Of a DNA stretch of 64,000 nucleotides, positions 18,321-58,914 are shown piece after piece. The notes under the pieces are model-generated. The model saw only the letters and a program-made list of their open reading frames with translations, did not search any database and was not told where the DNA came from. The translations under genes were made by a program, and so were the position numbers. The stretch is taken from assembly GCF_055900595.2 (NCBI RefSeq), contig NZ_CM148325.1; one strand, given 5' to 3'. The first letter of the stretch is position 1. Every line of letters starts with the position of its first letter.

Positions 18321-18361
18321 CTTCCAGAGTATATTTGTCAATAATTTGAGGTTCGGTTATT

Positions 18362-19396: not shown

Positions 19397-19397
19397 T

Positions 19398-39983: not shown

Positions 39984-41411
39984 TTAGACGATCTCTTCCG
40001 CGTACTGCCAAAGCGCTTTTAACAGTGCCACTTTCTCTTTGTCATCGGCATATTGTTGTGCCAGCATCTGCAATTCATCTGCATAACCCTGTAAAAACTC
40101 TGGCGTGAAGACCTGGCGGCGGTGCTCCAGCCAGCGTTGCTGCTCGGCATAATCCAGCGTCCCCGGGAAGTTGCGCGCCCGATAATTGAACAACAGCTTT
40201 TCAATCCGTTTATCGACAAAAGTGATATCCAGTGCCGGTAAATTACGCGGCTCGGTTTCCAGCACAATTTTCATTGCTGCACGATCGGCGTCACTGAAAA
40301 AGCCGTTATAAAGCTGTGCATCCACGTTATCTGAAGGCGTAAACGGTTCGGCTTCCGCGAATATCGCCACCACTTTTTCGCGCACTTGCGGATTTTCACG
40401 CAGAATTTTCAGGTTATTGAGGCAATGCTGACGATTAATTCCCAGTCGGTCGGCATCTTCCGGGCGTAGCGTATTCGCCTGGGCCAGCACCGGACATTTA
40501 TTGATATGCACCAGCTTAACCGGAACGGCGGCGTTATCGCCAAGATCGGTTTTTGCGGTATATAAACGCTCGCGCAATGTGTCGCTATCCAGTTCCAGTA
40601 ATGGCGAAATGTCTCCTGCCAAATCCACCATAATTACGGCATTGCGATTTTCAGGATGCCACGCCAGCGGTGCCACCCAGCTGGTATTGCCGCGCCATGC
40701 CCCAAACATTCCGGAAACGTGCACCAGGGGTTTCATCTGCGGAACATCAATCAACGCCATCAGTTTGTGTTTATTACGATGGGTAAAGAGATATTCAAAC
40801 AGGCGTGGCTGACGCGTTTTTACCAGTTTCGCCATCGCAATAGTGGCGTACACATCAGCCATCGCATCGTGGGCGTTGCTATGTTCAATTCCATTCGCTT
40901 TGGTTAAATGCTCAAGGCGAAAGCTCGGTAGACCGTCATCATTTTCAGGCCAGTTTATTCCTTCCGGGCGCAGGGCATAACAGGCACGCATAACATCCAG
41001 TAAATCCCAGCGCGAGTTATCATGCTGCCAGCTCCAGGCGTAAGGATCGTAGAAATTACGATAAAAAACGTTGCGTGTGACTTCGTCGTCGAAACGCACA
41101 TTGTTGTAGCCCAGAATACAGGTCTTCGGTACGTTAAAAAGCGAGTGAATACGGGCGGCAAACGCGGCTTCGTTTTCTCCTTTCGCCCGTGCTTCCTGCG
41201 GGGTAATACCGGTAATTAATACTGCTCCAGGCTGGGGCAAATAGTCATCCGCGGGCTTGCAGTAAAAGACTTCGGGTTCGCCGATGACATTGAATTCGCT
41301 ATCGGTGCGAATGGCTGCGAACTGTGCAGGGCGATCTAACGCGGGGTGCGTGCCAAAGGTTTCGTAATCGTGAAACAAAAAGGTAGATTGTTGCTTACCG
41401 TCATTCATCAT
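39984..41411 (-). CDS. sbcB: Exodeoxyribonuclease I
   Basis: ORF 39984..41483; start taken at MMNDGKQQSTFLFHDYETFG (DnaQ-like exonuclease motif). Confidence 0.92.
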   Translation of the reverse strand: MMNDGKQQSTFLFHDYETFGTHPALDRPAQFAAIRTDSEFNVIGEPEVFYCKPADDYLPQPGAVLITGITPQEARAKGENEAAFAARIHSLFNVPKTCILGYNNVRFDDEVTRNVFYRNFYDPYAWSWQHDNSRWDLLDVMRACYALRPEGINWPENDDGLPSFRLEHLTKANGIEHSNAHDAMADVYATIAMAKLVKTRQPRLFEYLFTHRNKHKLMALIDVPQMKPLVHVSGMFGAWRGNTSWVAPLAWHPENRNAVIMVDLAGDISPLLELDSDTLRERLYTAKTDLGDNAAVPVKLVHINKCPVLAQANTLRPEDADRLGINRQHCLNNLKILRENPQVREKVVAIFAEAEPFTPSDNVDAQLYNGFFSDADRAAMKIVLETEPRNLPALDITFVDKRIEKLLFNYRARNFPGTLDYAEQQRWLEHRRQVFTPEFLQGYADELQMLAQQYADDKEKVALLKALWQYAEEIV

Positions 41412-41619
41412 TAGGTTAAATCCGTTATTTCTGCTGTCTGCCAGAGTATCAAATATCACCGTGCTAATCAGCTTTAGCGCCACAATTTGGCAGCTAGTGG
41501 CAACAGATCATGTCAGATAAAAATGAGAGGGTAGTCACATTTTCTTGCACTTTATTCCAGCCAGTTCATAAGTATTTCCGTAAAAAGAACAGCTATTTGA
41601 AACTCCTGAGGGTTTGCTG

Positions 41620-42786
41620 TTGAAACGCCGTCTTATTATTGCTGCTTCTTTGTTCGTTTTTAACTTATCGTCTGGTTTTGCGGCGGAAAACATTCCTTTT
41701 TCACCTCAGCCTCCAGAGATTCATGCCGGGTCCTGGGTACTGATGGATTACACCACCGGACAGATCCTCACCGCGGGTAATGAGCATCAACAGCGCAATC
41801 CCGCCAGCCTGACAAAGCTGATGACGGGCTATGTCGTGGATCGCGCTATCGATAGTCATCGCATTACGCCAGACGATATTGTCACCGTAGGGCGCGATGC
41901 GTGGGCGAAAGATAATCCGGTGTTTGTCGGTTCTTCACTGATGTTTTTGAAAGAGGGCGATCGCGTATCGGTACGTGATTTAAGCCGTGGTTTAATTGTG
42001 GATTCCGGAAATGACGCTTGTGTTGCTCTGGCTGACTATATTGCCGGTGGGCAACGGCAGTTTGTTGAAATGATGAACAACTATGCCGAGAAGCTGCATC
42101 TCAAGGATACGCATTTTGAAACAGTGCATGGTCTGGATGCACCTGGCCAGCATAGCTCGGCTTATGATTTAGCTGTGCTTTCTCGCGCTATCATCCACGG
42201 CGAGCCCGAGTTTTATCATATGTACAGTGAGAAAAGTCTCACCTGGAACGGTATCACCCAGCAAAACCGTAACGGATTATTGTGGGATAAAACCATGAAT
42301 GTTGACGGCCTGAAAACGGGTCATACTTCTGGTGCCGGGTTTAATCTCATTGCTTCGGCTGTAGATGGGCAGCATCGTCTCATTGCAGTGATAATGGGGG
42401 CTGACAGTGCAAAAGGTCGTGAGGAAGAGGCAAGAAAATTACTGCGTTGGGGGCAACAAAACTTTACTACGGTGCAAATTTTGCACCGTGGGAAAAAGGT
42501 CGGAACGGAACGCATCTGGTATGGCGATAAAGAAAATATCGACCTGGGAACGGAACAAGAGTTCTGGATGGTGCTACCGAAAGCCGAAATTCCACATATC
42601 AAAGCCAAATATACCCTTGATGGTAAAGAACTCACCGCGCCAATTAGCGCCCATCAGCGGGTAGGGGAAATTGAACTTTACGACCGTGATAAACAGGTGG
42701 CGCACTGGCCGCTGGTTACCCTGGAATCTGTCGGGGAAGGCAGCATGTTTTCTCGCCTGAGTGATTATTTCCACCATAAGGCCTGA
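41620..42786 (+). CDS. dacD: D-alanyl-D-alanine carboxypeptidase (PBP6b)
   Basis: ORF 41614..42786; likely TTG start at MKRRLIIAAS; SxxK motif (SLTKLMT) and SGN motif present. Confidence 0.9.
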   Translation: MKRRLIIAASLFVFNLSSGFAAENIPFSPQPPEIHAGSWVLMDYTTGQILTAGNEHQQRNPASLTKLMTGYVVDRAIDSHRITPDDIVTVGRDAWAKDNPVFVGSSLMFLKEGDRVSVRDLSRGLIVDSGNDACVALADYIAGGQRQFVEMMNNYAEKLHLKDTHFETVHGLDAPGQHSSAYDLAVLSRAIIHGEPEFYHMYSEKSLTWNGITQQNRNGLLWDKTMNVDGLKTGHTSGAGFNLIASAVDGQHRLIAVIMGADSAKGREEEARKLLRWGQQNFTTVQILHRGKKVGTERIWYGDKENIDLGTEQEFWMVLPKAEIPHIKAKYTLDGKELTAPISAHQRVGEIELYDRDKQVAHWPLVTLESVGEGSMFSRLSDYFHHKA

Positions 42787-42904
42787 CCTTTCTTTTGCAG
42801 CAGACTGGCAGGAGTGCGAGTCTGCTCGCATAATCAACACTCATTCCTTGTGGTTTTAATATTGCAACTATACTGTATATAAAAACAGTAATAATGGAGG
42901 CGTC

Positions 42905-43378
42905 ATGAACTACGAGATTAAGCAGGAAGATAAACGTACCGTTGCAGGTTTCCATCTCGTTGGCCCGTGGGAACAGACGGTAAAGAAAGGTTTTGAGCAG
43001 TTGATGATGTGGGTAGATAGCAAAAATATTGTGCCGAAGGAGTGGGTTGCTGTCTATTACGACAATCCGGATGAAACACCCGCCGAAAAATTACGCTGCG
43101 ACACCGTCGTGACGGTACCGAATAACTTTACGCTCCCCGAAAACAGTGAGGGCGTCATTCTGACAGAAATTTCAGGTGGTCAATATGCGGTGGCGGTGGC
43201 TCGTGTAGTCGGTGATGATTTTGCTAAACCCTGGTATCAGTTCTTTAATAGCCTCTTGCAGGACAGTGCTTATGAAATGTTACCAAAGCCCTGCTTCGAG
43301 GTTTACTTGAACAATGGCGCGGAAGATGGGTACTGGGATATCGAAATGTATGTTGCGGTGCAGCCAAAACATCACTAA
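42905..43378 (+). CDS. sbmC: DNA gyrase inhibitor
   Basis: 157-aa [28 protein letters not shown]; GyrI-like. Confidence 0.92.
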
Positions 43379-43575
43379 TTCATCTCAGGGCGGTGTGTTG
43401 ACGCGAAGACCACTCTTTTTTTGAAAGCGAAAAGAGTAAGATGCGCCTTTCAATTTTTTCGCTCCTGCCGGGAAATTACACTGTTCCCGGTTTGTCCGTC
43501 GGATAATTCAGAGGCGCGCCTTCTGGCCGACAGATGAGTTATGAGCGCTTTTAATCTTCATTACGGAGTTTCTGC

Positions 43576-44634
43576 GTGCGTGCCGATAAGTCATTAAGCC
43601 CGTTTGAAATCCGGGTATACCGCCATTACCGCATTGTGCATGGTACTCGGGTCGCGCTGGCATTCCTGCTCACTTTTCTCATTATCCGCCTGTTTACTAT
43701 CCCGGAAAGCACCTGGCCGCTGGTCACCATGGTGGTGATTATGGGGCCAATCTCGTTCTGGGGGAACGTTGTCCCTCGCGCATTCGAACGTATTGGCGGT
43801 ACGGTGTTGGGGTCGATTTTAGGTCTTATCGCTCTGCAACTGGAGTTAATCTCGTTACCGCTGATGTTAGTCTGGTGCGCGGCGGCTATGTTTCTTTGCG
43901 GTTGGCTGGCGCTGGGCAAGAAACCGTATCAAGGTTTATTGATTGGGGTGACGCTGGCAATTGTTGTTGGTTCCCCGACAGGTGAAATTAATACGGCGTT
44001 ATGGCGAAGCGGCGATGTGATCCTCGGCTCTTTACTGGCAATGTTGTTTACCGGTATCTGGCCACAACGGGCGTTCATCCACTGGCGCATTCAACTGGCA
44101 AAAAGTCTGACCGAGTATAATCGGGTCTATCAATCTGCATTCTCACCGAACTTACTCGAACGCCCGCGTCTGGAAAGCCATCTACAAAAACTCCTGACCG
44201 ATGCCGTGAAAATGCGTGGGCTGATTGCGCCCGCCAGCAAAGAAACCCGTATTCCAAAATCGATATATGAAGGTATCCAGACCATTAATCGCAATCTGGT
44301 TTGTATGCTGGAGTTGCAAATCAATGCGTACTGGGCCACGCGCCCCAGCCATTTCGTGTTATTGAACGCGCAAAAACTTCGTGATACCCAGCATATGATG
44401 CAGCAAATACTGCTGAGCCTTGTTCATGCGCTGTACGAAGGTAATCCGCAGCCGGTTTTTGCCAATACGGAAAAATTGAACGATGCTGTGGAAGAGCTGC
44501 GTCAGTTGCTGAATAACCACCATGACCTGAAGGTTGTGGAAACACCAATCTATGGTTATGTGTGGCTGAACATGGAAACGGCACATCAGCTTGAGTTGCT
44601 ATCGAATCTGATTTGCCGGGCCTTGCGCAAATAA
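43576..44634 (+). CDS. yeeA: FUSC-family inner membrane protein
   Basis: 352-aa ORF in the conserved core position. Confidence 0.88.
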   Translation: MRADKSLSPFEIRVYRHYRIVHGTRVALAFLLTFLIIRLFTIPESTWPLVTMVVIMGPISFWGNVVPRAFERIGGTVLGSILGLIALQLELISLPLMLVWCAAAMFLCGWLALGKKPYQGLLIGVTLAIVVGSPTGEINTALWRSGDVILGSLLAMLFTGIWPQRAFIHWRIQLAKSLTEYNRVYQSAFSPNLLERPRLESHLQKLLTDAVKMRGLIAPASKETRIPKSIYEGIQTINRNLVCMLELQINAYWATRPSHFVLLNAQKLRDTQHMMQQILLSLVHALYEGNPQPVFANTEKLNDAVEELRQLLNNHHDLKVVETPIYGYVWLNMETAHQLELLSNLICRALRK

Positions 44635-44805
44635 TTCCTGAACTTCAGAATCATCTTGCTGCTGCTTCGATTCAGCAAGGATAAAGGGTATGATAGTGAA
44701 AAGGGATAAAAGCATTGTCATCTGCGGCAGCTATGAGTAATGTTGGCCCTAACGAATAGCGGTTGCTTAAACGAATCCGACTCTCACATTATCAGGGGTA
44801 TAAAA

Positions 44806-45135
44806 ATGGAAACTACCAAGCCTTCATTCCAGGACGTACTGGAATTTGTTCGTCTGTTCCGTCGTAAGAACAAACTGCAACGTGAAATTCAGGACGTTGA
44901 GAAAAAGATCCGTGACAACCAGAAGCGCGTCCTGTTGCTGGACAACCTGAGCGATTACATCAAGCCAGGGATGAGCGTTGAAGCAATCCAGGGCATCATC
45001 GCCAGCATGAAAGGTGACTATGAAGATCGCGTTGACGATTACATCATCAAAAATGCCGAGCTCTCCAAAGAACGCCGCGATATCTCCAAAAAGCTGAAAG
45101 CTATGGGCGAAATGAAAAACGGCGAAGCGAAGTAA
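44806..45135 (+). CDS. yeeX: UPF0265 family protein YeeX
   Basis: ORF 44740..45135; start taken at [14 protein letters not shown] (109 aa). Confidence 0.88.
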
Positions 45136-45235
45136 TTCCCGTTTTATTCAATGAGGGTTGCTCGGCAACCCTCATTGCTCATTGATTCTTATCTGTGTAT
45201 CACCGTCATCATTCTCATCTGAGAACCAATCGAAA

Positions 45236-45418
45236 TTAACAACAGCCTTCTTCTGTATGCAGCAAGGCAAAAAGTTCTGTAACTCCATTGTTATTAACTG
45301 CACTGGTTACTAACACGTTGTGCGCTCCAGCTTCCCGTAACCAACTTTTCACCAAAGATATTTGTTCCATGCTGGCTAAATCTGCTTTGGTTACTACTCC
45401 AATGACCGGGTGATTCAT
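45236..45418 (-). pseudogene. Putative EutP/PduV-like GTPase C-terminal fragment
   Basis: The C-terminal 60 aa of ORF 45236..45592 (MNHPVIGVVTKADLA...GVTELFALL) resemble a EutP/PduV C-terminus; the N-terminal part of that ORF is antisense to an IS remnant and is likely spurious. Confidence 0.35.
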
Positions 45419-45474
45419 GGCCCGGTAGGGCGTTTTTACCTCTAATTCCTGCTTCAGCGCTGAGATTCCTGCTT

Positions 45475-45648
45475 GTTGCCGGAAAAGCAGGCACCTGCCG
45501 TCTGAACGGTATCGATCCGGAAGCGTATCTGCGCCATATTCTGAGCATACTGCCGGAATGGCCCTCCAACCGTGTTGACGAACTCCTGCCATGGAACGTA
45601 GTTCTCACCAATAAATAAGCGTCAATACGGTGCTCCGTTGACGCTTAC
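45475..45648 (+). mobile_element. IS66-family element remnant (3-prime end: transposase C-terminal fragment plus terminal inverted repeat)
   Basis: Plus-strand translation ...CRLNGIDPEAYLRHILSILPEWPSNRVDELLPWNVVLTNK* parallels the C-terminus of the intact IS66 transposase at 56160..57731 (…[30 protein letters not shown]…); terminus ...accgtattgac...cgcttac matches the IS66 end at 56130. Confidence 0.6.
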
Positions 45649-46032
45649 TTTAATCCGTTTTCTGAGCTTAGATTTTTCTGTTCCTACCCAGACCGTGGAT
45701 TTGGAATTCATTTTTTGTCAGGTCAATGCTAATCGTTAAAACGGCCATAACGCACCTCCACTGGAAGGTTTATCAGTAATATCCTACCGTTGCTTCATGG
45801 TCGGGGCGTCCATTCCATTATTATCGGTTTTCCTTTCTGTTTATAAATGAAAACGCCAGCTGTATTCAGGCTGGCGTCAGGGGAAATGAAGCCTGTTGAG
45901 TGAGATTCACCGCTTCTGGTGCAGAAGCTGCAGATGGCGCAGGGTAAGGACATCTTCTCTTGCCTGCTTAATACAGGACAACAGTGCTGTTTCTGTGGTT
46001 AATGGCACTATACCCTGCATCACTGCATTGTC

Positions 46033-46227
46033 TTACAGCAACTGGTGAGGGCTGGCATAAGTTGCCGGTGTTTCGGTAGAGTCACGGTCATCCACCACGC
46101 GGAGTGAATAACCTTTTTCAGCGGCCTTATTAATCAGTTCAGTGATATTAACACCATCAATGTCAACGACAATGTGCCCCATATCCAGCGCCTGTACGTT
46201 AACGCTGTCGGCTTCCAGTGTCATCAT
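46033..46227 (-). CDS. yeeW: CP4-44-type island protein YeeW
   Basis: 64-aa ORF MMTLEADSVNVQALDMGH...; start overlaps the cbtA stop (ATGA). Confidence 0.75.
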   Translation of the reverse strand: MMTLEADSVNVQALDMGHIVVDIDGVNITELINKAAEKGYSLRVVDDRDSTETPATYASPHQLL

Positions 46228-46597
46228 TTCGCCTCCGGATACTTACCCAGGGTAATGTTATTTACCGTTCTGTAATTGTCGCGGGTCATCAGGCCGGTCG
46301 CCCTGCGAGCCCGGAGGATATCGATGCTGTTTATTAACTGAGAGCGGGTACAGGCGCTGAATCCCGGCTGGTCGGTAGCACCAGCGCGTATTTTTCCACG
46401 AGAAAGTTCACCGCATCACACAGTGAAATGCCTGCCTCAATATGCTGCTCAATCACACGTTCATCGGCAAAAGGTGTGTCATTCAGTGTGAGGCCATAGT
46501 GCTGGTCCAGCAGTCGGGACAGCAGTATCTGCCAGATTTCAACAGGAGACGGGCGAGAACTGGTCGCCTGCCCGGGTAATACAGGTAATGTTTTCAT
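46224..46597 (-). pseudogene. cbtA: CbtA (YeeV) type IV toxin, frameshifted
   Basis: N-terminal 73 aa in ORF 46334..46597 ([10 protein letters not shown]...VEKYALV); the C-terminal part (…LMTRDNYRTVNNITLGKYPEAK*) is readable in another frame; total span is 374 nt, not a multiple of 3; apparent 1-bp deletion near 46377. Confidence 0.7.
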
Positions 46598-46685
46598 ACT
46601 GAAGATTTTCCTGATATGCAGATATAAAAATGGAAAAGTGGCGTGGTGAAAACACCAGGCCGTAGCAGAAGGCTATTCTGGAGAG

Positions 46686-47054
46686 TTAATTTTTCATTTC
46701 GGGCGTCGGATAAACAGCCAGATAAACGTAACCACAACTGCTGAGGGTATCGGCTTTGCAGGTCAGCCCTTTTGCATACAGCGTGACGGTATGCTGATGG
46801 CGGGGATTCAGTTCACCGCTGGTGAGCATGAGTTCCAGTTGTTTCATCAGCAGCGGAAAGGCCTGGTCCAGGTGGTACGCATCTGCATCGCTGAACAGGC
46901 CTCTGATACCGGCGCGGTCGGCAAGGTAATGCAACCGGTTACCCTCCTGCACCAGACGTGCCCCGAAACAGGGCGTCACGGTGCAGGGCAGCCCCCACCA
47001 GGGGCGGTCGTGATTGTCGTCGGGAAGTGTTGTCCCGGGGAGTGTGTCTGACAC
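46686..47054 (-). CDS. cbeA: CbeA (YeeU) antitoxin of the CbtA/CbeA system
   Basis: 122-aa ORF MSDTLPGTTLPDDNHDRPWWGLPCTVTPCFGARLVQEG...; apparently intact. Confidence 0.88.
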   Translation of the reverse strand: MSDTLPGTTLPDDNHDRPWWGLPCTVTPCFGARLVQEGNRLHYLADRAGIRGLFSDADAYHLDQAFPLLMKQLELMLTSGELNPRHQHTVTLYAKGLTCKADTLSSCGYVYLAVYPTPEMKN

Positions 47055-47127
47055 GATAAAATCCTTACAGAAAATCGGCTAAGAATGGTCCGGTAGTGGC
47101 GATAATTCTGCTCATCAGAATTCCCAC

Positions 47128-47349
47128 TCAGTTCAGGGTGACGCTCATCAGCCGGACATACGGACCAAAACTGTCCTTACGGCGTTCAGCAAACACGGCC
47201 AGCACACCGGGAATATCCTGCACTTCACGACCGGTATACGCTTCAGCACTGCCGTGCCAGCGGTATTTACCGGTACAGAACGGAAAAAGACGGGATGTCG
47301 GATGTTGTTGGTGAATACGCATGGCTTCACCACGGGTGATAATTTTCAT
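47128..47349 (-). CDS. yeeT: DUF987-family island protein YeeT
   Basis: 73-aa ORF in conserved order upstream of cbeA. Confidence 0.8.
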   Translation of the reverse strand: MKIITRGEAMRIHQQHPTSRLFPFCTGKYRWHGSAEAYTGREVQDIPGVLAVFAERRKDSFGPYVRLMSVTLN

Positions 47350-47411
47350 AATGGGATACCTCTGAAGACAGAAGATAAAAGTGAAAACAGGTGTGATGTG
47401 GTTGTGAAGGG

Positions 47412-47888
47412 TTAAAGCAGACCATGTTCGGCAAAGGAGAAAACCTGGTTGCCACCGACTATCAGATGGTCCGGCACCCGGATATCCACCAGGCCCAGTG
47501 CCTGTACCAGACGTTCCGTGATAAGGCGGTCTGCCTTACTGGGTGTGACTTCACCGGAGGGGTGATTGTGTGCCAGCACCACGGCAGCGGCATTGTGGTA
47601 CAGGGCGCGTTTAATCACTTCCCGGGGATGGACTTCCGTGCGGTTGATGGTGCCGGTAAAGAGGGTTTCACCGGCAATCAGTTGATTCTGGTTATTCAGA
47701 TACAGCACCCGGAATTCTTCACGCTCCAGTCCCGCCATGTTCAGAATCAGCCATTCCCGTGCTGCACGGGTGGAGGTGAAGGCCACGCCGGGTTCATGAA
47801 GATGGCGGTCCAGGGTTTTCAGGGCCCGTTGAATGAGGCTGCGCTCGCCGGGCGTCATCTCTCCGGGCAGAAAGGAAAGTTGTTGCAT
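47412..47888 (-). CDS. yeeS: RadC-like JAB-domain protein YeeS
   Basis: ORF 47412..47903; JAMM-like motif HNHPSG; start position uncertain. Confidence 0.82.
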   Translation of the reverse strand: MQQLSFLPGEMTPGERSLIQRALKTLDRHLHEPGVAFTSTRAAREWLILNMAGLEREEFRVLYLNNQNQLIAGETLFTGTINRTEVHPREVIKRALYHNAAAVVLAHNHPSGEVTPSKADRLITERLVQALGLVDIRVPDHLIVGGNQVFSFAEHGLL

Positions 47889-47903
47889 TGTGCTTCTCTC
47901 CAT

Positions 47904-48383
47904 TCAGTCGATGATGCGCATAATGGCGCTGCATTCCGGATGCTGCAGGGCGTAATCCCGCAACCGGTAATAATGGACCGTCATGGCATAATTCTCCGTA
48001 CGACAGGCATGATGACTGTACGTCATCAGACAGGCGGCAATACCGGCGGCTTCCGGGCTCATTTCTGCGCGGTTACCGTTCATGGCATTGAACAGTACCC
48101 ATGTTTCGTCATCATCGTCATCCGGTTCGGGTGCCATAAATGCCCCGCCGTTGTTCAGGGTGTACAGATTCCAGATACCACCGCAGTAGTCTTCGCACAG
48201 ACGGTCCATCCAGCCGAAGACACGGGGCTCCAGGGTCACCCACTGTGGAATGAGGCCAAAATGCTGCGGCCAGAAGCTGATGCGCTGTTCATCAGGGACG
48301 AGGCTGGCAACCAACTGAGGCGGATTATTCTCTGGTGTTGTAGCTGAATAAATTGTGGGGGTATTCTGAGAAACGGTTTTCAT
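47904..48383 (-). CDS. Antirestriction protein (ArdB/KlcA-like; YfjX/YafX family)
   Basis: 159-aa ORF with an acidic stretch (EPDDDDDETW), in the position typical for antirestriction genes of CP4-like islands. Confidence 0.75.
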   Translation of the reverse strand: MKTVSQNTPTIYSATTPENNPPQLVASLVPDEQRISFWPQHFGLIPQWVTLEPRVFGWMDRLCEDYCGGIWNLYTLNNGGAFMAPEPDDDDDETWVLFNAMNGNRAEMSPEAAGIAACLMTYSHHACRTENYAMTVHYYRLRDYALQHPECSAIMRIID

Positions 48384-48464
48384 GAGATAACTCTTTAAAT
48401 AACAAATAAATGTGTGTTTTTCAGGAACGAAAGCTGAATGATTCCCTCACTCAGGGAAACGGCA

Positions 48465-49286
48465 TCAGCGCAGGCTCTCCAGCATCGTTTCTGCCATCAC
48501 CCACAATGCGCGATTGAGCTTAATGTCGGTATCAATGCTGTGAATGGCCCGGGTATGGATACGTTTTCCTTTTGCACTGCGACCGGAAATCCCGCCTTTC
48601 AGCATATTCTCCTGGATGGTCTGATATGCGCTCCACAGGTCCTTACCGTAATCCTCCCGGCGTCGCGGCGTCAGAATGTCGGCGGTGGTGACGGGCTGAT
48701 GTTCGTCACCATAACGGTAAGTCAGTGCCGCCTGTGCCAGCGCCTGGCGTGCCGGTGGCGGCAGGACCAGAGACTGCATGGCATCACGCTTCTCCTCTAT
48801 CCGGTCAAACACGCCCACCACCTCGTAAGCCCCTTCGATAACTTTCTCCACTACATTTCCCCGGTGTGGAACACGCACTTCCCCCAGAGACTGGCCACAG
48901 ACGCACCCGTTCTGGCAGACGAACCTGAAGTAACCCGGCAGCATCTGGTAGCTGGAGGTACCGTCATGAGAGTTGAGCAGAATAATTTCAGGGACATGTT
49001 CTCCGTTTATCTCTCCGGCCCGCCGCAGACGCAGCATGTGTTTTGTGTATCCCCGGCGGCCCGGGTCGCGCACACGGGTCTGGCAGGCGAAGAACGGCTG
49101 AAAGCCTTCCCGCTGCAGATTTTCCAGGACGGTAATGGTGGGAATGTACGCATACCGTTCACTGCGGGAGGTGTGCCGGTCTTCCCCAAAAATACTGGGT
49201 ACATGGCGTATCAGTTCTTCATGTGTCAGCGGACGGTCACGGCGTATCTGGTTTGCAGCATAACCAAAACGACTTGCTAATCGCAT
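48465..49286 (-). CDS. DUF932-family protein (YafZ/YfjQ-like)
   Basis: 273-aa ORF typical of CP4-type islands. Confidence 0.7.
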   Translation of the reverse strand: MRLASRFGYAANQIRRDRPLTHEELIRHVPSIFGEDRHTSRSERYAYIPTITVLENLQREGFQPFFACQTRVRDPGRRGYTKHMLRLRRAGEINGEHVPEIILLNSHDGTSSYQMLPGYFRFVCQNGCVCGQSLGEVRVPHRGNVVEKVIEGAYEVVGVFDRIEEKRDAMQSLVLPPPARQALAQAALTYRYGDEHQPVTTADILTPRRREDYGKDLWSAYQTIQENMLKGGISGRSAKGKRIHTRAIHSIDTDIKLNRALWVMAETMLESLR

Positions 49287-49331
49287 ACTTTGCTCCTTAT
49301 CGGTGGTTAAGATTTACTGGTGCAATAAATG

Positions 49332-49368
49332 AAAAAAGCCGCGTCTCCCGGAGAAGACGCGGCCTGAC
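49332..49368 (-). terminator. Rho-independent terminator downstream of the minus-strand secreted-protein genes
   Basis: gccgcgtct...agacgcggc hairpin with a U-run on the minus strand. Confidence 0.55.
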
Positions 49369-49506
49369 GGGTGAAATGAATAAGGTTTATTGTCTGAGAG
49401 GCCTTTCACTGGCGAGCCACGCATTAAGCGGCTTTCCGGTAACAATGGCTGGGGCTGTATTTACCTTTGATATTAATAATGTGCAGAGAAACGCATGGTT
49501 TACTCC

Positions 49507-49917
49507 TTAGATTTTAAGTTTGTCCTGGGCTACAACGACAGGTTTTCCGGATGTGTCGATGACTCCTACCGTCGGTACGCCATTTTTGATTTCGAAGAAC
49601 GGTTTGTTGCTACCTGAGCACAGTTGATTGTCCCCGTATTCAATCATTTGTGCTTTCCCGGTTTTCAGGTTAACTACCGAGACAGTGTAGTCGTAGCACC
49701 AGGCACCACCACGTTCAAGCACGAAAACATAGCTGTTATCTTTATAGTTGAACTGATTCTTTGTCTGGCAATTCATACCGTCAATTTCGGTACAGGAAAA
49801 CGCTTCTGTAGTATTAACGTATTTGATGTTATTTGGCAGTTTTACTTGTTTCGCAGTAGCGAAGACAGAGAACAGAATAGTTACAGCAACGAGTAAAGTT
49901 TTGATAAAAGTTTTCAT
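49507..49917 (-). CDS. Small secreted Cys-containing protein, unknown function
   Basis: 136-aa ORF with a clear signal peptide (MKTFIKTLLVAVTILFSVFATA); low-GC gene. Confidence 0.6.
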   Translation of the reverse strand: MKTFIKTLLVAVTILFSVFATAKQVKLPNNIKYVNTTEAFSCTEIDGMNCQTKNQFNYKDNSYVFVLERGGAWCYDYTVSVVNLKTGKAQMIEYGDNQLCSGSNKPFFEIKNGVPTVGVIDTSGKPVVVAQDKLKI

Positions 49918-49932
49918 GATAGACTCCTTAAA

Positions 49933-50421
49933 TTAGTTAACCGCAGCTACGTAGTTTTTCACCAGATACGCGAATTCATGCACGCCAATTTCACCGAACC
50001 AAACCAGGTAGGCCGGGTCATCTAAACCAAAGTAACGGTAGCCAACAACTTCATGGGTTTTTGGGTTATAGAGTGTTACGATAAAGTCCCAGCCGCAGGT
50101 ATTGGCTTTGCAACCGTCGCCCTGGAACCAGACTGTACCGTTAATGTTTACTGGCGTGATACCTCCACCAGGGCCATCCATATAGCCGCCTTTACCGAAC
50201 ATGCCGCTCAGTCCGACCGGTTTTAATGCTTTGTCGATAGCGGCTTTGTAGGTAGCGTCACCTTCGTACAACTCGTACGTTGATGGACACGCTCCAGGTT
50301 GTTCAGCCCAGGCTTCCGGGTTACAACTAAGAGCTTGTTTTACGGTAGCCGCTTCTGCGTTAAAGTTAAAGCCCGTGAACAGAACCGCCAGAAATAACAT
50401 AAGGGTATGTAAACGTTTCAT
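49933..50421 (-). CDS. Secreted Cys-rich protein, unknown function (C-terminal part of ORF 49933..50724)
   Basis: Internal Met followed by a signal peptide (MKRLHTLMLFLAVLFTGFNFNAEA) with an SD-like ggaag upstream; the upstream in-frame 101 codons encode another signal-like segment. Confidence 0.5.
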   Translation of the reverse strand: MKRLHTLMLFLAVLFTGFNFNAEAATVKQALSCNPEAWAEQPGACPSTYELYEGDATYKAAIDKALKPVGLSGMFGKGGYMDGPGGGITPVNINGTVWFQGDGCKANTCGWDFIVTLYNPKTHEVVGYRYFGLDDPAYLVWFGEIGVHEFAYLVKNYVAAVN

Positions 50422-50751
50422 TGTAAATATTCTTCCGTTGTAAATGGCGCTGGAAAATTTCTCATCAGTGAAACCTTCCGGAAGTTTCCCCCCCTTGTAT
50501 GATGTATATCGCCAGTATTTTATTTCATCCCGGCTGTAATTTTTATATTCCCCGGCACGTGCAATAACGCTGACCAGAGATATAAGGCTCATTAATAACT
50601 TTACAGGTAATTTCATAATTAAATTTCCAGTGAGTGAATTGACAGGTGAGGGGTAAAACTTTCTCTCAGGTAATATATATCTGAAAATATTTTCAATAAC
50701 ACCAGACAGGAAAAACACCACCACAGGCGGTGGCGTTTCTTTGGGGCGTCT

Positions 50752-51822
50752 TTATTTAATCCGGGCCATCGCGTTTCTCAGTGCCAAATCTGCCTCTTCC
50801 GTTATATCCAGGCTTTTCTGCAATACCGCCTCTGACCGGGTCAGTGCCTGACGTGCTGCCAGCGGTTTCCGGATATGCTCCATCGCCAGCATCGTGTCTT
50901 CATAGCCCTGCTGACGCCAGGCGTCGGTATGTGCCGATGTAAAACTGAGCAGACCGCCGCTGTTGCCACCATCACCTGCATATTTCAGCCTTTTCCGGGG
51001 ACGGATCTCAAGGATTGTGGTGTCCGGAAAAGCCTGGCGATCCCATAAAGAACCGTCACTCAGATGCGTCACAATCACCATATTGCATCCGGCATCGACC
51101 AGAGGTGTCACAGGGGTATTTCCCTGCATATTTCGCCATCCTCCCATACCACCATCACCGAACATTGTCCCCTGAACCTCACGGGGACGGAACAGCAGGG
51201 GCAGCGCGGCTGACGCAAGCAGAGCCTCTTTCTGCTGTCCGCGGGGCAGGCTCTGGATATGCTGAAAAACGGCGTTTTTCGTGGTTCCGACACCCAGTTC
51301 AGCACGAATGCAGTCAATAATATCCTGCATGCCCCCTTCTGTGGGGTACAGCGACACATACAGCGGTAGCCCGTCTGCCAGAGCATCAGTATCAAGATAA
51401 TGATCCATCAGCGCTGTCAGGGGTTCATCTGACAACAACGGCTGAGCCATCAGATTGTCAAACCCGTTGATTGTCGATATATGGCGAAGAAGCGTCGTAA
51501 GCAGTGCTCCTGCACGTCCGGGGATCTGGCAGAGGTTCATTGCCTGGAACAATTTTTTCAGCAATGAAAAGTAAACCAATCTGTTTACCGACAGCACCTG
51601 ATTATTCCCCAGATGATCCCAGAGCGCCTCCAGGCGTACGGCAGCTTCTGACAGATCGGGAGAGGCCACGATAATGGCACCATTGAATGCGCCAATGCTG
51701 GCCCCTGAAACCATGCTGATCTGTGTACCACACTCTGCCAGTGCCTTAACCACTCCCGCCTGATAAGCGCCCACCGCCCCGCCACCGGACAGCACCAGCC
51801 CCGTTTTCATTTCTGTACTCAT
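50752..51822 (-). CDS. Patatin-like phospholipase
   Basis: 356-aa ORF with a Gly-rich oxyanion motif (SGGGAVGAYQAG), GxSxG nucleophile (GASIG) and DGG catalytic Asp motif (FGDGGMGG); start overlaps the upstream gene stop. Confidence 0.85.
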   Translation of the reverse strand: MSTEMKTGLVLSGGGAVGAYQAGVVKALAECGTQISMVSGASIGAFNGAIIVASPDLSEAAVRLEALWDHLGNNQVLSVNRLVYFSLLKKLFQAMNLCQIPGRAGALLTTLLRHISTINGFDNLMAQPLLSDEPLTALMDHYLDTDALADGLPLYVSLYPTEGGMQDIIDCIRAELGVGTTKNAVFQHIQSLPRGQQKEALLASAALPLLFRPREVQGTMFGDGGMGGWRNMQGNTPVTPLVDAGCNMVIVTHLSDGSLWDRQAFPDTTILEIRPRKRLKYAGDGGNSGGLLSFTSAHTDAWRQQGYEDTMLAMEHIRKPLAARQALTRSEAVLQKSLDITEEADLALRNAMARIK

Positions 51823-52724
51823 GCAGCCCCCTTCTGAAATATTTCATCGACCATACTTTCAGAGAGGCGTTCTGCAGAGCAGAGGCGAGGCATGCGAACC
51901 GGTAAGTGTTCTGCAGCCTGCGTGGTTGACCAGATCACCGGATGCTGCTCTTCACTGCACCAGTCTCCCAGCCAGTTAATCGCGTCATGCCACTCGTTAT
52001 CTGCCTGCTCCCGGCCCTGACCACCAAGCCAGTCCAGAGTGTTCAGACGCACGGTTGCACTACCGCCACTCTCCTGTGCCATCTGCGTTAATGCTTTATG
52101 TCTGAGAATATCCAGTAGCTGGTTAACCTGGCCTGTTTCGCTCTGACGTATCACATCACCAAACGCGCCCCAGCGAAGCTCTTCAAGTGCCACATAACAA
52201 CGTCCGGCAGGGGAAAATGACGCATATCGCCCGGCGCTCCACCATGAGAATATCTGCTCAAGATGTAACTGCGCCCGCTGAACCTGGTCAACACGGTGGA
52301 GTTTTTCTTCAAGATGATTCAGTTTATGGTGAACCTGATCGGCCAGGGTGAGTAACTGCTCCCGCGTATCTGCGGAATAATGCGCCAGCCTGGCTGTATC
52401 ACTGACCAGTGAACTGACCCTGTCGTTTACCCGGGTAATCGCGTAGTTTGTGGTGGCAAGTGACGTTGTCATCTCCGTCAGCCAGCGCAGGGACGCCTCA
52501 ACGCCCTGTGCAAGCGACGCATTGATGGCATTCTGCCGTGCAGCGCCTTCGCCGGTCAGCCCCTCTTTTAAACGCCGGAAGAACGTGCGCTCTCCGGCCG
52601 TGCGGATATGCTCCTGTGCAACATCGATTCCGTTTGCGAAATCAACCACAAATTTTTCAGGAAGACAGGTGAGTACCTGACATACCCGGTTATCAGCAAT
52701 TTGTTGAATAAATGGTGAAGTCAC
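51819..52724 (-). CDS. Hypothetical protein, predicted helical, no recognisable domain
   Basis: 301-aa ORF whose start and stop overlap the dynamin-like and patatin-like genes by 4 bp each. Confidence 0.7.
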   Translation of the reverse strand: MTSPFIQQIADNRVCQVLTCLPEKFVVDFANGIDVAQEHIRTAGERTFFRRLKEGLTGEGAARQNAINASLAQGVEASLRWLTEMTTSLATTNYAITRVNDRVSSLVSDTARLAHYSADTREQLLTLADQVHHKLNHLEEKLHRVDQVQRAQLHLEQIFSWWSAGRYASFSPAGRCYVALEELRWGAFGDVIRQSETGQVNQLLDILRHKALTQMAQESGGSATVRLNTLDWLGGQGREQADNEWHDAINWLGDWCSEEQHPVIWSTTQAAEHLPVRMPRLCSAERLSESMVDEIFQKGAA

Positions 52725-55117
52725 AGCATTGTCTCCAGCTCTTCCCTCAGCGCCTTACTGTCAGTAATGAGCTCAGGAACCCTTTCATTTAATGCCTGAA
52801 GTCGCCCGGTAAGTCGTTCCTGCGCCTGCTGATCGCGTTTATGATCTTCAGAGCTCTGAATCAGCGTGTTACGCAGTTGTTCAACTTTCTCCCTGAATGC
52901 GCAGAAAAAGGCATCGATTTCCTGGCGGACGGGCTGGTTAATATCCTGCTCAATGGATGCCTGCAGCTCCCCGAAATATGCCCGGGTCAGTGACATAACT
53001 TCCTCTCTGACCTTGTTGATATTGATCACGCTGCGACTCACATCCTCGTCATAGTTTTCCCAGCCCAGGTCACTGGTGCCAAACCATCGACAAACGGTTC
53101 CCCATACGCCACTCTGCCGACGGCGACGGGTGACGGTCTCCGTTCTTTCCTCCATAAGCGCACTCAGATTTATTTTTACCGCGAGCCGGGTCTGTAACTG
53201 GCTGACTGCCGGAAAACTGATTTTTACGGTAAAGCCCTCATCCTCCAGGCGGGCATTGATGCGACCGGCAATGTTTTCTGTGGCGTACAGGGCCGTGCCA
53301 CGAAAACCTGTTTCAATCCCGCTGACGATTTTCTCCAGCTCAGGCCGGAACTGTGCTTCAGCCTCACGGTGCAGGCTGGTCACGGTCGATTCGATTTGCG
53401 TCATCAGTTCAAGGGCTTCCCTGCGATCACTGAATTTTATTTCGGGGCTGTCCGGGGCAAAATCTCGTTTCCTGTAATCCTCCCGGCCCTGGTTGTTGAT
53501 ACCGGACCATTGAGAAATTTTCCCCCATAATCCGGACTGAGACCTTCGTTGTTCTGCGTCTTCTTCCTCCAGCATTTGCTGTTCTTTGCGTTTACCGCTT
53601 CTGAAATAGTCATTCAGCTCCTCTTCCAGTGAGGTGCAGACCCCCGTCAGTAATTCCCGGGTTTTAGTATCGATCTCCTCCATGGCCATTCTGACATCAG
53701 TGGTCATCTGCTCCTGACAGTCCGCGATTTCCCGGATATCCGCAAGCAGGCTGGTGATATGCGACTGCAGTGACTGAATGCTTTGCTGTAGCCCCTGATG
53801 GCGTAACAACAGGTATTCACTGATATTTTCTGCATTCTGCATCAGTTTTGCGGCGGCAGAGTCAACCGCCAGTGCCGCAGCTCTGGAATGTGAGCTCTGT
53901 ATGACTTCCGTTATCAGTTGATCGATAAGTGAGCCTTCCCACAGGTCTGTCGCCCCTTCAGTTGCCAGTTCACTGTCTTTACAGACGTATTCTTTTTTCA
54001 TGCAACCGAAGGCACCTCTGATAAAATCATCGACCCAGGCTTCATCAACAGGAAGGGTTCCGTTTTTCCGTAACTCATGAAGCGCACGGTTAGCCAGGTA
54101 TGCCTGGCGTGAGGATCCGGGATAAACGCGGGAGGCGGGCAGCACATTGCTGTTCAGCATTGCCGGAACTTTCTGGCGTACGGCATCTGCCCCATCGCCA
54201 TTGCGGTCTTTCTCATCAAATTTATTGACCAGTACAAACAGGCGGCCGGCTGATACGTCAGCAATGGCATTAAGCTCTTTACGGACGTCTTCATCCGCTT
54301 TTGAGTTCATCTGTGTGTAATCCATCACAGCCAGAACCGCAGAGGCTTTCTGCAGTTGATCCCGCATCATCACTTCCATCTGCGGTTGTCCGGCCTCATT
54401 AGGGCCGGGGGTATCCAGCAGTGTGAGTGTTCCCTGGCATGCATCCATCCCCACCAGATGGCTGAATTCCACGTCGATCACCGGCAGTTTCTGCACTTCT
54501 GCGTATTCATCAAAAGGAAATTCAGTCCCCATTGCCGCAGCAAGACGAACCAGATCGTTTAACGATGCCAGTCCGGTAAAGATTTCCTCCTCCCCGTGGT
54601 ATTCATTTTTGAGCCAGCCATCATCCGTCAGAATATCCAGCAGTTCGCGGGTATCCCCGGTTTGCTGCAGGGTCTGTGCGACCTGCTGTCCTGCCGGGGT
54701 GGCGAGTTTTTCCTGCAGTGTGATTAATAAATTGCGGACAGGCTGAATATGTTCCAGATGGAGAACCGGCTCAGTTTTTCCGGGAACGTGGCGGATGAGC
54801 GTCGGTACAGAGGTCATGGGGCGGTTACGGTTAGGCAGAATTTCCTGCCCCACAATGGCGTTGATGGTGGTTGATTTGCCTGCTTTCATCGTGCCGACAA
54901 CAGCCAGCACCATCTCCCTGCGGGCGGTTTTGATTTGTTCGCCCTCCAGCTCCTCAATTCTTTTCAGTGCTTTCTGTTTATCAAAAAGCAGTCTGTTTTC
55001 GTTCTTACTGTCAGATAACACATCTGGCTCCTCAACCATTTGCCGGAGCAGATTAATGTTCAGTTGCAAAAGTCGGTCGGCTTCATCACAAAGCAGGGCG
55101 ATGTTCTTTTCGTGCAT
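52721..55117 (-). CDS. Bacterial dynamin-like large GTPase
   Basis: 798-aa ORF with G1 P-loop GTMKAGKST (aa 75-83), G3 DTPG (aa 235-238), G4 NKFD (aa 298-301), and a long helical C-terminal half with two repeated RxQSG.WG...W motifs. Confidence 0.85.
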   Translation of the reverse strand: MHEKNIALLCDEADRLLQLNINLLRQMVEEPDVLSDSKNENRLLFDKQKALKRIEELEGEQIKTARREMVLAVVGTMKAGKSTTINAIVGQEILPNRNRPMTSVPTLIRHVPGKTEPVLHLEHIQPVRNLLITLQEKLATPAGQQVAQTLQQTGDTRELLDILTDDGWLKNEYHGEEEIFTGLASLNDLVRLAAAMGTEFPFDEYAEVQKLPVIDVEFSHLVGMDACQGTLTLLDTPGPNEAGQPQMEVMMRDQLQKASAVLAVMDYTQMNSKADEDVRKELNAIADVSAGRLFVLVNKFDEKDRNGDGADAVRQKVPAMLNSNVLPASRVYPGSSRQAYLANRALHELRKNGTLPVDEAWVDDFIRGAFGCMKKEYVCKDSELATEGATDLWEGSLIDQLITEVIQSSHSRAAALAVDSAAAKLMQNAENISEYLLLRHQGLQQSIQSLQSHITSLLADIREIADCQEQMTTDVRMAMEEIDTKTRELLTGVCTSLEEELNDYFRSGKRKEQQMLEEEDAEQRRSQSGLWGKISQWSGINNQGREDYRKRDFAPDSPEIKFSDRREALELMTQIESTVTSLHREAEAQFRPELEKIVSGIETGFRGTALYATENIAGRINARLEDEGFTVKISFPAVSQLQTRLAVKINLSALMEERTETVTRRRRQSGVWGTVCRWFGTSDLGWENYDEDVSRSVININKVREEVMSLTRAYFGELQASIEQDINQPVRQEIDAFFCAFREKVEQLRNTLIQSSEDHKRDQQAQERLTGRLQALNERVPELITDSKALREELETML

Positions 55118-55379
55118 TATTTAACCTTCCTAAGACGCATTTTCATGACAACCACGGAGGAGGTCATTTACTACAAACGATCGTTTATAACGATCGATAT
55201 GATAGTAACGATCGATGTATTCTATTAACTTGAGAAACACAACGCAAGGGGACAACCCGGGTATGGCTGCGTTTGCATAGTGTTTTCATGGAGTTAAAAA
55301 TCTGTAACAACAGCCTGGTACATCACCACCGGGTTCAGAAGAAAATCCAGTTCCATACCGCGCGGGCAACAGAGACCAC

Positions 55380-56129
55380 CTAGTCACGGACGGCGCGCAG
55401 AACCGTGCGTGCAACAGAGGCAATGCAGACGCTCTCCGCCGTGTCAAATATCCGGTCCACCGCACCGGTAAACTGTTCACGGGCCTGAGACCGGACAGAC
55501 TCCGTGCGCAGCTCGTCCTGCAGGCGGGTCATCAGGGGACTGGCGGCATGGTCGGGAAGTGCTGTCATGAGCGCACTGACCAGCGTATCCAGTTCCCAGC
55601 CGGTGCGGGCCGATACGGCAACAACCCGATGTACGGGCCGGAACAGACGGAATACCGCCTCCGTTTTTTCGCGAATGTTCTGTGCCTGTGCGGGAGAAGG
55701 CTGAATACCGGCCATATCCCATTCATGGCAGGGCTCCGTTTTATCGGCCTGCATCACCACAAACAGTACCCGCTGATGTCCCCGGTGCAGGATGTGTCGC
55801 CAGAAATACTCATCCACAGACAGGGCACGGTCATCGGCTTTAATCAGCCACAGTACCAGGTCCAGTTCGAGCAGAATGTCACGGTACAGGGCTTCATACT
55901 CTGCATCCCTGTCCCGGCTCTCGCCCACCCCGGGCAGGTCAGTGATAACCATGCTGTGACCATGGCCATTCAGACGGAAGCGCTGCACTTCCCGGGGGCC
56001 GGCGTGAACATCACTGACCGGGGTGACCTCCCCCTGAAACAGCGCATTACAGAGTGAGGATTTACCGGCCCCGCTTTTACCCATAATGCCAGGCACGGGT
56101 TCGTGACTGGTGAGTTTGCGCAGATGTTC
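55380..56129 (-). pseudogene. YeeP/YfjP/YkfA-type small GTPase, 3-prime portion, disrupted by IS66 insertion
   Basis: ORF 55380..56096 (P-loop GIMGKSGAGKSSL, DLPG); the reading frame continues upstream to the IS boundary; the 5-prime portion lies beyond the IS. Confidence 0.75.
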
Positions 56130-56159
56130 GTAAGCGACTCGTCAGAACCGTATTGATAT

Positions 56160-57731: not shown

Positions 57732-57750
57732 ATCCTCACTTTACAACGGG

Positions 57751-58775: not shown

Positions 58776-58826
58776 TATTTTTGTAGAGCCGGAGGAAACA
58801 GACCAGACGGTTTAAATGAGCCGGTT

Positions 58827-58914
58827 ACAGATGTTCCAGGATGTGACGGGAAAGTGAGTAAGGCAGGGAGGAGAGCGGTTTTTCAATTGCCTCAATGGCA
58901 TCAGACGGATTCAT
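58827..58914 (-). pseudogene. YeeP/YfjP-type small GTPase, 5-prime portion (N-terminal about 29 codons)
   Basis: Minus-strand reading MNPSDAIEAIEKPLSSLPYSLSRHILEHL runs into the IS66 target duplication and continues in frame after the IS (RKLTSHEPVPGIMGKSGAGKS...). Confidence 0.5.

Follow-up and report, generated by a model that had tools for sequence, protein, structure and literature searches.

Why does the genomic island beside tmaR (yeeX) carry a gene set that departs from CP4-44, its counterpart in Escherichia coli K-12? The initial annotation of the window (the whole stretch of 64,000 nucleotides analysed here) attributed the difference to modular shuffling among related integrative elements. 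We conclude that the layout in the window is very probably (roughly 85%) the usual complete form of the island and that K-12 carries a shortened derivative of it. The right-hand part of the locus contains the following features.

44806–45135, plus strand: tmaR (yeeX), core gene bordering the island (annotated by RefSeq in strain M160133, which is 100% identical; 98.9% collinear with K-12)
45236–45418, minus strand: 3′ remnant of pduV (K-12 'yoeF'), core DNA (Pfam PduV-EutP, E = 6e-13)
45419–46032, no strand given: degraded right end of the island, with a transposase fragment (45481–45618) and a DUF957 fragment (45907–45999) (RefSeq pseudogene annotations in loci L001 and L003)
46033–46227, minus strand: yeeW, N-terminal DUF5983 domain only, 64 amino acids (Pfam DUF5983_N, E = 8e-29)
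46224–46597, minus strand: cbtA toxin pseudogene (Pfam CbtA_toxin, E = 3e-37, profile positions 1–73 of 112 only)
46686–47054, minus strand: cbeA antitoxin, intact (Pfam CbeA_antitoxin, E = 4e-53)
47128–47349, minus strand: yeeT (DUF987) (Pfam DUF987, E = 2e-39)
47412–47888, minus strand: yeeS, RadC-like JAB protein, full length (Pfam RadC, E = 8e-45, 152 bits)
47904–48383, minus strand: antirestriction protein (Pfam PF03230 (Antirestrict), E = 4e-37)
48465–49286, minus strand: DUF932 gene (Pfam DUF932, E = 5e-52)
49336–49365, minus strand: GC-rich hairpin and T-run, terminator-like, between cargo and DUF932 (consensus scan; 13-pair stem, 8 GC pairs)

The junction with tmaR and a truncated pduV places the window's island in the CP4-44 family. 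In strain XH988 the genes tmaR, pduV, pduU and pduT are intact at this locus and homology with the window stops at 45418; defined against this pdu-carrying strain, the island/pduV junction is therefore 45418/45419. The pdu-less genomes listed have their breakpoint in pduV no more than a few bases away from this position (~45418). The interval first assigned to the island, 45200–49290, accordingly holds from 45419 onwards, and its first ~220 bp (45200–45418) are the core pduV remnant. About 370 nucleotides are absent from the right end of the window's island relative to the complete DUF5983–DUF957–DUF4942 tail of the O157:H7 tRNA-Ser island, which we take to be SpLE1/OI-43,48. The island would have taken the place of most of the cbi–pdu region, abutting the truncated pduV, in what appears to have been a single replacement. 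The annotated parts of the island variants show neither an integrase nor an attachment repeat. Very probably, an old, integrase-less island fills the cobU–yeeX gap in most E. coli, and its conserved right-hand module is what the interval contains. The backbone order of this island is yeeP-like GTPase, cargo, DUF932, antirestriction, RadC-like YeeS, DUF987 YeeT, CbeA, CbtA and YeeW.

Pfam profiles confirm that yeeW, cbtA, cbeA, yeeT and yeeS, then the antirestriction gene and then DUF932, are all present in the order first described and on the minus strand. The antirestriction assignment is secure (126.8 bits against a curated cut-off of 25 for PF03230), and YeeS has a JAMM H-x-H...D motif, HNHPSGEVTPSKAD, at residues 107–120. 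Two of the genes are reduced. The homologue of yeeW in the O157:H7 tRNA-Ser island encodes 163 amino acids, and cbtA, intact in K-12, has a 1-bp deletion in alignment with the K-12 gene that causes a frameshift after about codon 74 and a premature stop (RefSeq labels it 'frameshifted' in loci L001, L003 and L008). The type IV toxin–antitoxin pair CbtA/CbeA is thus not whole in the window, having an intact antitoxin and a frameshifted toxin. Promoter-like sites in 45100–49600 are no commoner than in shuffled sequence (3 found, 4.1 expected), and the hairpin at 49336–49365, which lies within the conserved backbone, is the only feature of that promoter and terminator scan worth noting. NCBIfam and PHROGs scans of the DUF932 protein and a 387-amino-acid ORF returned families of unknown function or nothing, and PADLOC-DB 2.0 gave zero matches for the backbone proteins.

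The window and K-12 CP4-44 (yeeP-isrC-flu-yeeR-yeeS-yeeT-cbeA-cbtA-yeeW-yoeF) share the tmaR junction, the truncated pduV and a yeeP-like GTPase gene beyond the cargo. A single contiguous blastn match (40167–47864, 98.9%) runs from yeeA through yeeS. Homology then stops at 47864, in the 5′ end of yeeS, and resumes only in yeeP; positions 9216–14302 of the K-12 locus (L002) have no homology in the window. The K-12 cargo, flu with a truncated yeeR, is absent from the window; K-12 has neither DUF932 nor the antirestriction gene and is short of the first ~24–30 nucleotides of yeeS. The flu/yeeR cargo defines the K-12 variant, not the CP4-44 island family.

Strain elppa10 provides the intermediate between the two. 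At the same locus it has agn43, a full-length yeeR (2,517 nucleotides), irmA, DUF905, DUF932, the antirestriction gene and yeeS through to tmaR, as in the agn43-yeeR-irmA(aec69)-aec70-aec71 islands (PMC6480617). The window matches elppa10 at 98.4% identity up to 49439, the limit of the conserved backbone, through both the antirestriction and the DUF932 genes. From DUF932 to yeeW the backbones are 98–100% identical except in the 5′ half of DUF932, and the antirestriction gene is 99–100% identical. K-12 and elppa10 are in turn 99.1–99.3% identical on either side of a single gap of 3,357 bp (elppa10 locus L006, 17522–20878). We infer that K-12 CP4-44 derives from a variant carrying the agn43-yeeR-irmA-DUF905 cargo, whose descendant would then have lost a segment running from the yeeR 3′ end through irmA, DUF905, DUF932 and the antirestriction gene into the start of yeeS. 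K-12 lacks the antirestriction and DUF932 genes because of this deletion, which fuses a truncated yeeR to yeeS and is why the K-12 layout looks different. That yeeR is truncated in K-12, with irmA, aec70 and aec71 missing, has been described, as has the grouping of the antirestriction and 'DNA repair' genes into one multi-copy linkage group in one predicted transcription unit (PMC6480617). The junction of the deletion holds 2–3 filler bases and no microhomology was seen at its endpoints, so we name no mechanism for it.

The DUF932 and antirestriction genes could instead have been shuffled in from a CP4-6- or CP4-57-like element to give a hybrid island. The initial annotation had likened the arrangement to those two elements, and the families and their order do agree: CP4-6 (yafZ ... 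yafX-ykfG-ykfH-yafW-ykfI) and CP4-57 (yfjQ ... yfjX/lfgA-yfjY/lfgB-ypjJ-yfjZ-ypjF) share the order DUF932, antirestriction, RadC-like JAB, DUF987, YeeU-type antitoxin and CbtA-type toxin, and recombination among such islands does happen. The spacing differs, however. The DUF932 and antirestriction genes are adjacent in the window, 81 bp apart, whereas other genes separate them by ~2 kb in CP4-6 and ~6.4 kb in CP4-57, and the two elements occupy other K-12 loci (thrW for CP4-6, about 2.76–2.78 Mb for CP4-57). DNA identity to their copies is only 72–75% for yeeS and the antirestriction genes (yafX, yfjX) and 70–72% for DUF932 (yafZ, yfjQ), against the 98–100% found with the flu-type copies at this locus, and one deletion accounts for the absence of both genes from K-12. 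We therefore regard a hybrid origin as extremely unlikely. On these identities the CP4-6 and CP4-57 genes are paralogues only, and the antirestriction and DUF932 genes are native to this island rather than imported. Given the elppa10 intermediate, shuffling was rejected for these two genes as an account of the whole difference from K-12.

How common each layout is was assessed in 5,426 complete E. coli genomes from RefSeq, a clonally biased set with many K-12 laboratory strains and many O157:H7 and ST131 strains. The series DUF932–antirestriction–yeeS...yeeX, contiguous from yeeA to DUF932, occurs in 3,136 of them. The layout of the window is the commonest counted at the yeeX junction (2,184 genomes) and is annotated in O157:H7 and ATCC 25922. 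The flu/agn43 type with DUF932 accounts for 522 genomes, the K-12 deletion junction for 383 and an intact pdu region for 644, and about 1,260 fall outside all counted classes. Some 430 genomes carry DUF932 beside yeeX together with neither of the two counted cargos. The exact arrangement thus largely proves to be what the initial annotation had named as the outcome that would count against its own reading, the common ancestral CP4-44 layout. That it is common is counted; that it is ancestral is suggested by the breadth of its distribution together with the direction of the deletion.

The part of the shuffling proposal that does stand concerns the cargo, which lies to the left of the hairpin with the following features.

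49440–55331, minus strand: variable cargo cassette (Pfam; homology to K-12 and elppa10 absent across the span)
49507–49917 and 49933–50616, minus strand: two signal-peptide (secreted) proteins, part of the cargo
50752–51822, minus strand: patatin-like phospholipase (Pfam)
51819–52724, minus strand: RdcB/YjcZ-like protein (Pfam YjcZ, E = 4e-70)
52721–55117, minus strand: dynamin-like GTPase (Pfam)
55380–56129, minus strand: 3′ part of the yeeP-like GTPase gene (Pfam MMR_HSR1, E = 4e-13)
56130–58827, minus strand: ISCro1 (IS66 family; tnpA, tnpB, tnpC) inside the GTPase gene (ORFs of 225, 115 and 523 amino acids; names from RefSeq, locus L003)

As first reported, a dynamin/patatin cargo replaces flu, with 50752–55117 occupying the site of K-12 isrC-flu-yeeR. 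Between the GTPase gene and DUF932, elppa10 has agn43, yeeR, irmA and DUF905, and the window has the dynamin, RdcB-like, patatin and two secreted-protein genes; the two alternative cargos lie between the same breakpoints, 49439/49440 and 55331/55332. Beyond the cargo, the GTPase gene is broken near codon 27 by the IS element, whose insertion is bordered by the duplication CAGATGTT(C), and the 5′ end of the gene lies at ~58828–58905. Its 3′ part shares 96% identity with the K-12 yeeP fragment and 94.9% with elppa10.

Identity to elppa10 changes in a mosaic fashion around the cassette. DUF932 is 99–100% identical in its 3′ part and 89–95% in its 5′ part, with a recombination breakpoint at ~48800–49000, and in the GTPase gene identity falls to 93–96%. 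Divergence is 5–10% in the GTPase gene and the 5′ half of DUF932. The O157:H7 tRNA-Ser island (GTPase-cah-dynamin-RdcB-patatin-DUF932-...-DUF4942) belongs to the same backbone family and carries the same patatin–RdcB–dynamin cargo, although it sits at another locus, has cah, is without the two secreted-protein genes and retains an intact cbtA-family toxin. A 2.8-kb tract of this cargo is 99.5% identical between the two islands, against only ~91% for the backbone there. These profiles indicate that cargo shuffling between islands is real. We hypothesize that paralogous islands swap cargos through homologous recombination, the crossovers falling in the conserved DUF932 and GTPase genes on either side.

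A different history would involve no change of cargo within one island; the dynamin-type and flu-type islands would be separate elements that had each entered a hot spot at yeeX. The cargo is indeed wholly different over ~6 kb, and a second variable segment lies to the left of the GTPase gene, where elppa10 homology is lost beyond 59012. Separate integration is nevertheless very unlikely: all examined variants join truncated pduV at ~45418 or only a few bases away, identity stays at 99–100% from there across the 3′ half of DUF932, and both variants have in common the left-hand genes (an HTH protein, a 603-nucleotide ORF, an inovirus Gp2-family gene, zinc-ribbon genes, ISL3 and a phosphotriesterase-related gene), besides the absence of an integrase or attachment repeat noted above. 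One island with exchanged cargo is the reading that we retain, and the proposed shuffling among related elements thus holds for the cargo and fails for the antirestriction and DUF932 genes.

The cassette occurs in 2,710 of the 5,426 complete genomes. Catalytic motifs (GASIG, DGG and a P-loop) are present in its proteins. As in the core E. coli pair RdcA (YjdA) and RdcB (YjcZ), a dynamin-like GTPase gene is followed by a YjcZ-family gene with overlapping stop and start. The window's pair differs in being island-borne and in its added patatin phospholipase gene, and amino-acid identity to the core proteins is only 33% and 30%. With NCBIfam PRK09866 scoring 556 bits, under the equivalog cut-off of 1146, the cargo proteins are best classed as paralogues, not orthologues, of RdcA and RdcB. 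The core GTPase system activates DgcE (PMC6510439). For the cargo, a 2026 transcriptome paper goes no further than to propose defence (PMC12922286). Across the five cargo and five backbone or neighbouring proteins scanned, PADLOC-DB 2.0 gave weak partial matches only and no significant defence-system model (LeoBC, E = 9e-5 and E = 2e-5, on GTPase domains; a phospholipase effector, E = 5e-4), and because of this we place the cargo in no known defence system. The two hypothetical cargo proteins matched only families of unknown function, or none, in NCBIfam and PHROGs.

The genes of the backbone module are closely spaced and all point the same way, and in our interpretation they probably benefit the element and not the host. 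From its family assignment, the antirestriction protein would shield incoming island DNA from restriction; YeeS would act as a JAB metalloprotease, its active-site motif being intact; and CbeA/CbtA would stabilise the island, a role lost in the window because the toxin is dead. Among the papers found on CP4-44 with antirestriction and DUF932 genes and on DUF932, RadC, KlcA and the leading region, of which only PMC6480617 was directly relevant, none treats the module as an anti-defence operon. A tentative and rather doubtful proposal is that the cargo operon and the two signal-peptide proteins form a self-contained unit, carried by recombination from one paralogous island to another, whose product would be a putative, uncharacterised membrane-acting phage-defence or membrane-repair system, with the DUF932–antirestriction–RadC–DUF987 block as the island's putative anti-defence establishment operon.

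The difference from K-12 is ordinary, the truncation in K-12 having already been published (PMC6480617), and a specialist would find nothing surprising here. Since CP4-44 of K-12 is a deleted, atypical reference, differing from K-12 at this locus is no sign of anything unusual. The putative dynamin–RdcB–patatin operon is very widespread, with about every second complete E. coli genome carrying it, and together the census and the mosaic profiles make the locus a clear, small example of paralogous E. coli islands swapping cargo via conserved flanking genes.

The stretch is E. coli DNA; over 44000-52000 it matches strain M160133 at 100% identity and many other strains at 99.9%. An ORF listing, Pfam and RefSeq annotations of strains that are identical or nearly so were concordant, giving a map that bears out the gene list and gene order of the initial annotation.

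Gene map of the cobU-yeeX locus in the window (coordinates, strand, feature)
43576-44634, +, yeeA, core
44806-45135, +, tmaR/yeeX, core
45236-45418, -, EutP/PduV fragment, core remnant
45481-45618, +, transposase fragment, degraded island DNA
45907-45999, -, DUF957 fragment, degraded island DNA
46033-46227, -, yeeW
46224-46597, -, cbtA, frameshifted
46686-47054, -, cbeA
47128-47349, -, yeeT
47412-47888, -, yeeS
47904-48383, -, antirestriction gene (PF03230)
48465-49286, -, DUF932 gene
49507-49917 and 49933-50616, -, two unassigned ORFs with N-terminal signal peptides
50752-51822, -, patatin
51819-52724, -, YjcZ/RdcB-like
52721-55117, -, dynamin-like
55380-56129, -, yeeP-like GTPase, interrupted
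56130-58827, -, ISCro1 (IS66 family), duplication CAGATGTT(C) on both flanks

ISCro1 lies at about codon 27 of the GTPase gene, with CAGATGTT(C) as its target duplication; M160133, otherwise identical across 44000-52000, lacks the insertion. On the left side of the GTPase gene, at 58998-60161 (- strand) and past 59013, is a second variable segment. Here the window has a 387-amino-acid ORF without a family, and close relatives carry, after this ORF, an AAA-ATPase fragment followed by IS100; in strain elppa10 the position is taken by a YfjI-family gene.

The island had been taken to start at 45200. In strain XH988 an intact tmaR-pduV-pduU-pduT operon occupies the junction and homology with the window stops at 45418, so the right end of the island is instead 45419, and the preceding 45236-45418 fragment (‘yoeF’ in K-12) is the 3′ stump of pduV. 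Among the matches listed, genomes without pdu lose homology no more than a few bases from this pduV position, and this near-identical breakpoint points to replacement of the cbi-pdu region by the island in a single ancient event.

Using blastn, the window matches K-12 CP4-44 in one block (40167-47864, 98.9% identity) that ends at the 5′ end of yeeS, and in a second block across yeeP (55332-55887, 96%). The antirestriction and DUF932 genes had been likened to an arrangement in CP4-6 and CP4-57. Against those elements the same genes reach only 70-75% identity (blastn), which marks them as paralogues of yafX/yafZ and yfjX/yfjQ rather than genes recently imported from CP4-6 or CP4-57. The spacing differs as well: 81 bp separate the two genes in the window, whereas about 2 kb in CP4-6 and 6.4 kb in CP4-57, with genes between, lie in the corresponding interval.

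A search with K-12 yeeR to yeeA recovered elppa10, whose cobU-yeeX island comprises GTPase, agn43, a 2,517-nt yeeR, irmA, DUF905, DUF932, antirestriction, yeeS, yeeT, cbeA, cbtA, yeeW, pduV′ and tmaR. The K-12 CP4-44 region (L002) matches it at 99.3% (8660-14300) and 99.05% (14303-22001). Because a single 3,357-bp gap, at 17522-20878 of the elppa10 island (L006), splits these two blocks, K-12 CP4-44 is evidently a deletion derivative, having lost the 3′ end of yeeR, irmA, DUF905, DUF932 and the antirestriction gene, together with ~24-30 nt at the start of yeeS. Alignment of the junction revealed no microhomology and 2-3 filler bases. From hisL through DUF932, as far as 49439, the window shares 98.4% identity with elppa10. 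Truncation of yeeR and absence of irmA, aec70 and aec71 in K-12 have been published (PMC6480617). Antirestriction and ‘DNA repair’ genes have been described there as one multi-copy linkage group in one predicted transcription unit (PMC6480617).

Layouts were counted across 5,426 complete genomes of E. coli, with the requirement that one place cover at least 80% of a query built so that just the named layout could reach 80%. A contiguous yeeA-to-DUF932 segment was found in 3,136 genomes (58%), the window layout through patatin in 2,184 (40%), the agn43-type layout (yeeR-3′/irmA/DUF905/DUF932...yeeA) in 522, the K-12 yeeR::yeeS deletion junction in 383 and an intact tmaR-pduV-pduU-pduT in 644, in a set that is clonally biased and in which ~1,260 genomes fall outside the counted classes. 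Of the matches listed for the K-12 junction, the two full-length ones come from laboratory strains. Annotations of O157:H7 and ATCC 25922 show the window layout; these belong to phylogroups E and B2, with K-12 in A, and this distribution suggests that the layout is old. As a candidate for the common ancestral CP4-44 layout, it is common, and plausibly ancestral.

Dynamin-type and agn43-type islands differ only at 49440-55331; two alternative cargos therefore occupy one slot. Sliding-window identity to elppa10 is 99-100% from tmaR to ~48800, is 95%, 89.5% and 90.5% in the 5′ half of DUF932 and the region upstream, and is 93-96% in the GTPase gene. These drops carry the signature of homologous-recombination crossovers within conserved flanking genes. 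The cargo also occurs in O157:H7, where a paralogous island (L007) adjacent to a tRNA-Ser gene contains GTPase, cah, dynamin, RdcB, patatin, DUF932, antirestriction, JAB, DUF987, YeeU, CbtA, DUF5983, DUF957 and DUF4942. Over 2.8 kb (window 50667-53467, L007 9001-11815), patatin, rdcB and the 3′ part of the dynamin gene are 99.5-100% identical between the window and this island, whereas the backbone is ~91% and the dynamin 5′ part 70-94% identical. Between the two O157:H7 loci, identity is 99.47% across 2,815 bp and 91% in the backbone. These values suggest that gene conversion between islands has occurred recently, and that the dynamin N-terminal region may be fast-evolving or recombinant. In strain MP1, PAI-aspV and ‘island 8’ have been reported to carry homologous dynamin/RdcB/phospholipase operons (PMC12922286). 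Given the alternative cargos, the identity drops, the near-identical cargo in a ~91% backbone and the MP1 operons, cassette exchange among related islands is real. It affects the cargo and not the antirestriction/DUF932 pair, so the modular shuffling initially proposed holds in part, and the observation behind it stands with corrections.

The dynamin-like and YjcZ-like cargo proteins (operon 50752-55117) are 33% and 30% identical to core RdcA and RdcB, respectively, and are their paralogues; the NCBIfam score is under the equivalog cut-off. The operon differs from the core rdcA-rdcB pair in being island-borne and in its added patatin phospholipase. Motif scans identified GASIG and DGG in patatin and a P-loop in dynamin. 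The cargo is present in 2,710 of the 5,426 genomes, about half (coverage of at least 80% in 1,841). A PADLOC 2.0 scan of the cargo gave no convincing defence-system assignment; strong induction of the operon in a lysogen has been reported, and a defence role suggested (PMC12922286, 2026). Pfam and NCBIfam give no family for the 49507-49917 and 49933-50616 ORFs, the first of which matches PHROG 8968, a function-unknown family. Both accompany dynamin cargo at the yeeX locus and are absent from the O157 tRNA-Ser copy, and thus represent a separate 1.2-kb insertion/deletion at the exact module boundary.

The seven genes from DUF932 to yeeW are co-directional and tightly packed: intergenic gaps are 15-88 bp, and one pair overlaps by 4 bp. 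A strong 13-pair GC-rich hairpin with a T-run (49336-49365, - strand), which precedes the DUF932 start by 50-80 nt, parts the block from the cargo; it lies within conserved backbone just before the 49439/49440 boundary, and is possibly a terminator that shields the backbone from cargo transcription. YeeS keeps its JAMM motif (motif scan), and its CP4-57 paralogue YfjY/LfgB is a reported protease (PMC10846083). The 47904-48383 product falls in PF03230, a family named for antirestriction proteins. Members of this family (ArdB/KlcA) block type I restriction. CbtA inhibits FtsZ and MreB, and CbeA counters it via filament bundling. In the window, cbtA is a pseudogene: compared with K-12 it lacks 1 bp (‘gtgcgtacc’ to ‘gtgc-tacc’), which creates a premature stop; the antitoxin gene cbeA is intact. 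M160133, WCHEC040047 and one O157:H7 strain carry the same frameshift in their RefSeq annotation; K-12, elppa10 and ATCC 25922 have an intact cbtA. In the simplest reading, the block would be an establishment and maintenance operon serving the element, and toxin loss in the window would have removed its addiction function. As a feature, the island is ordinary and already described.
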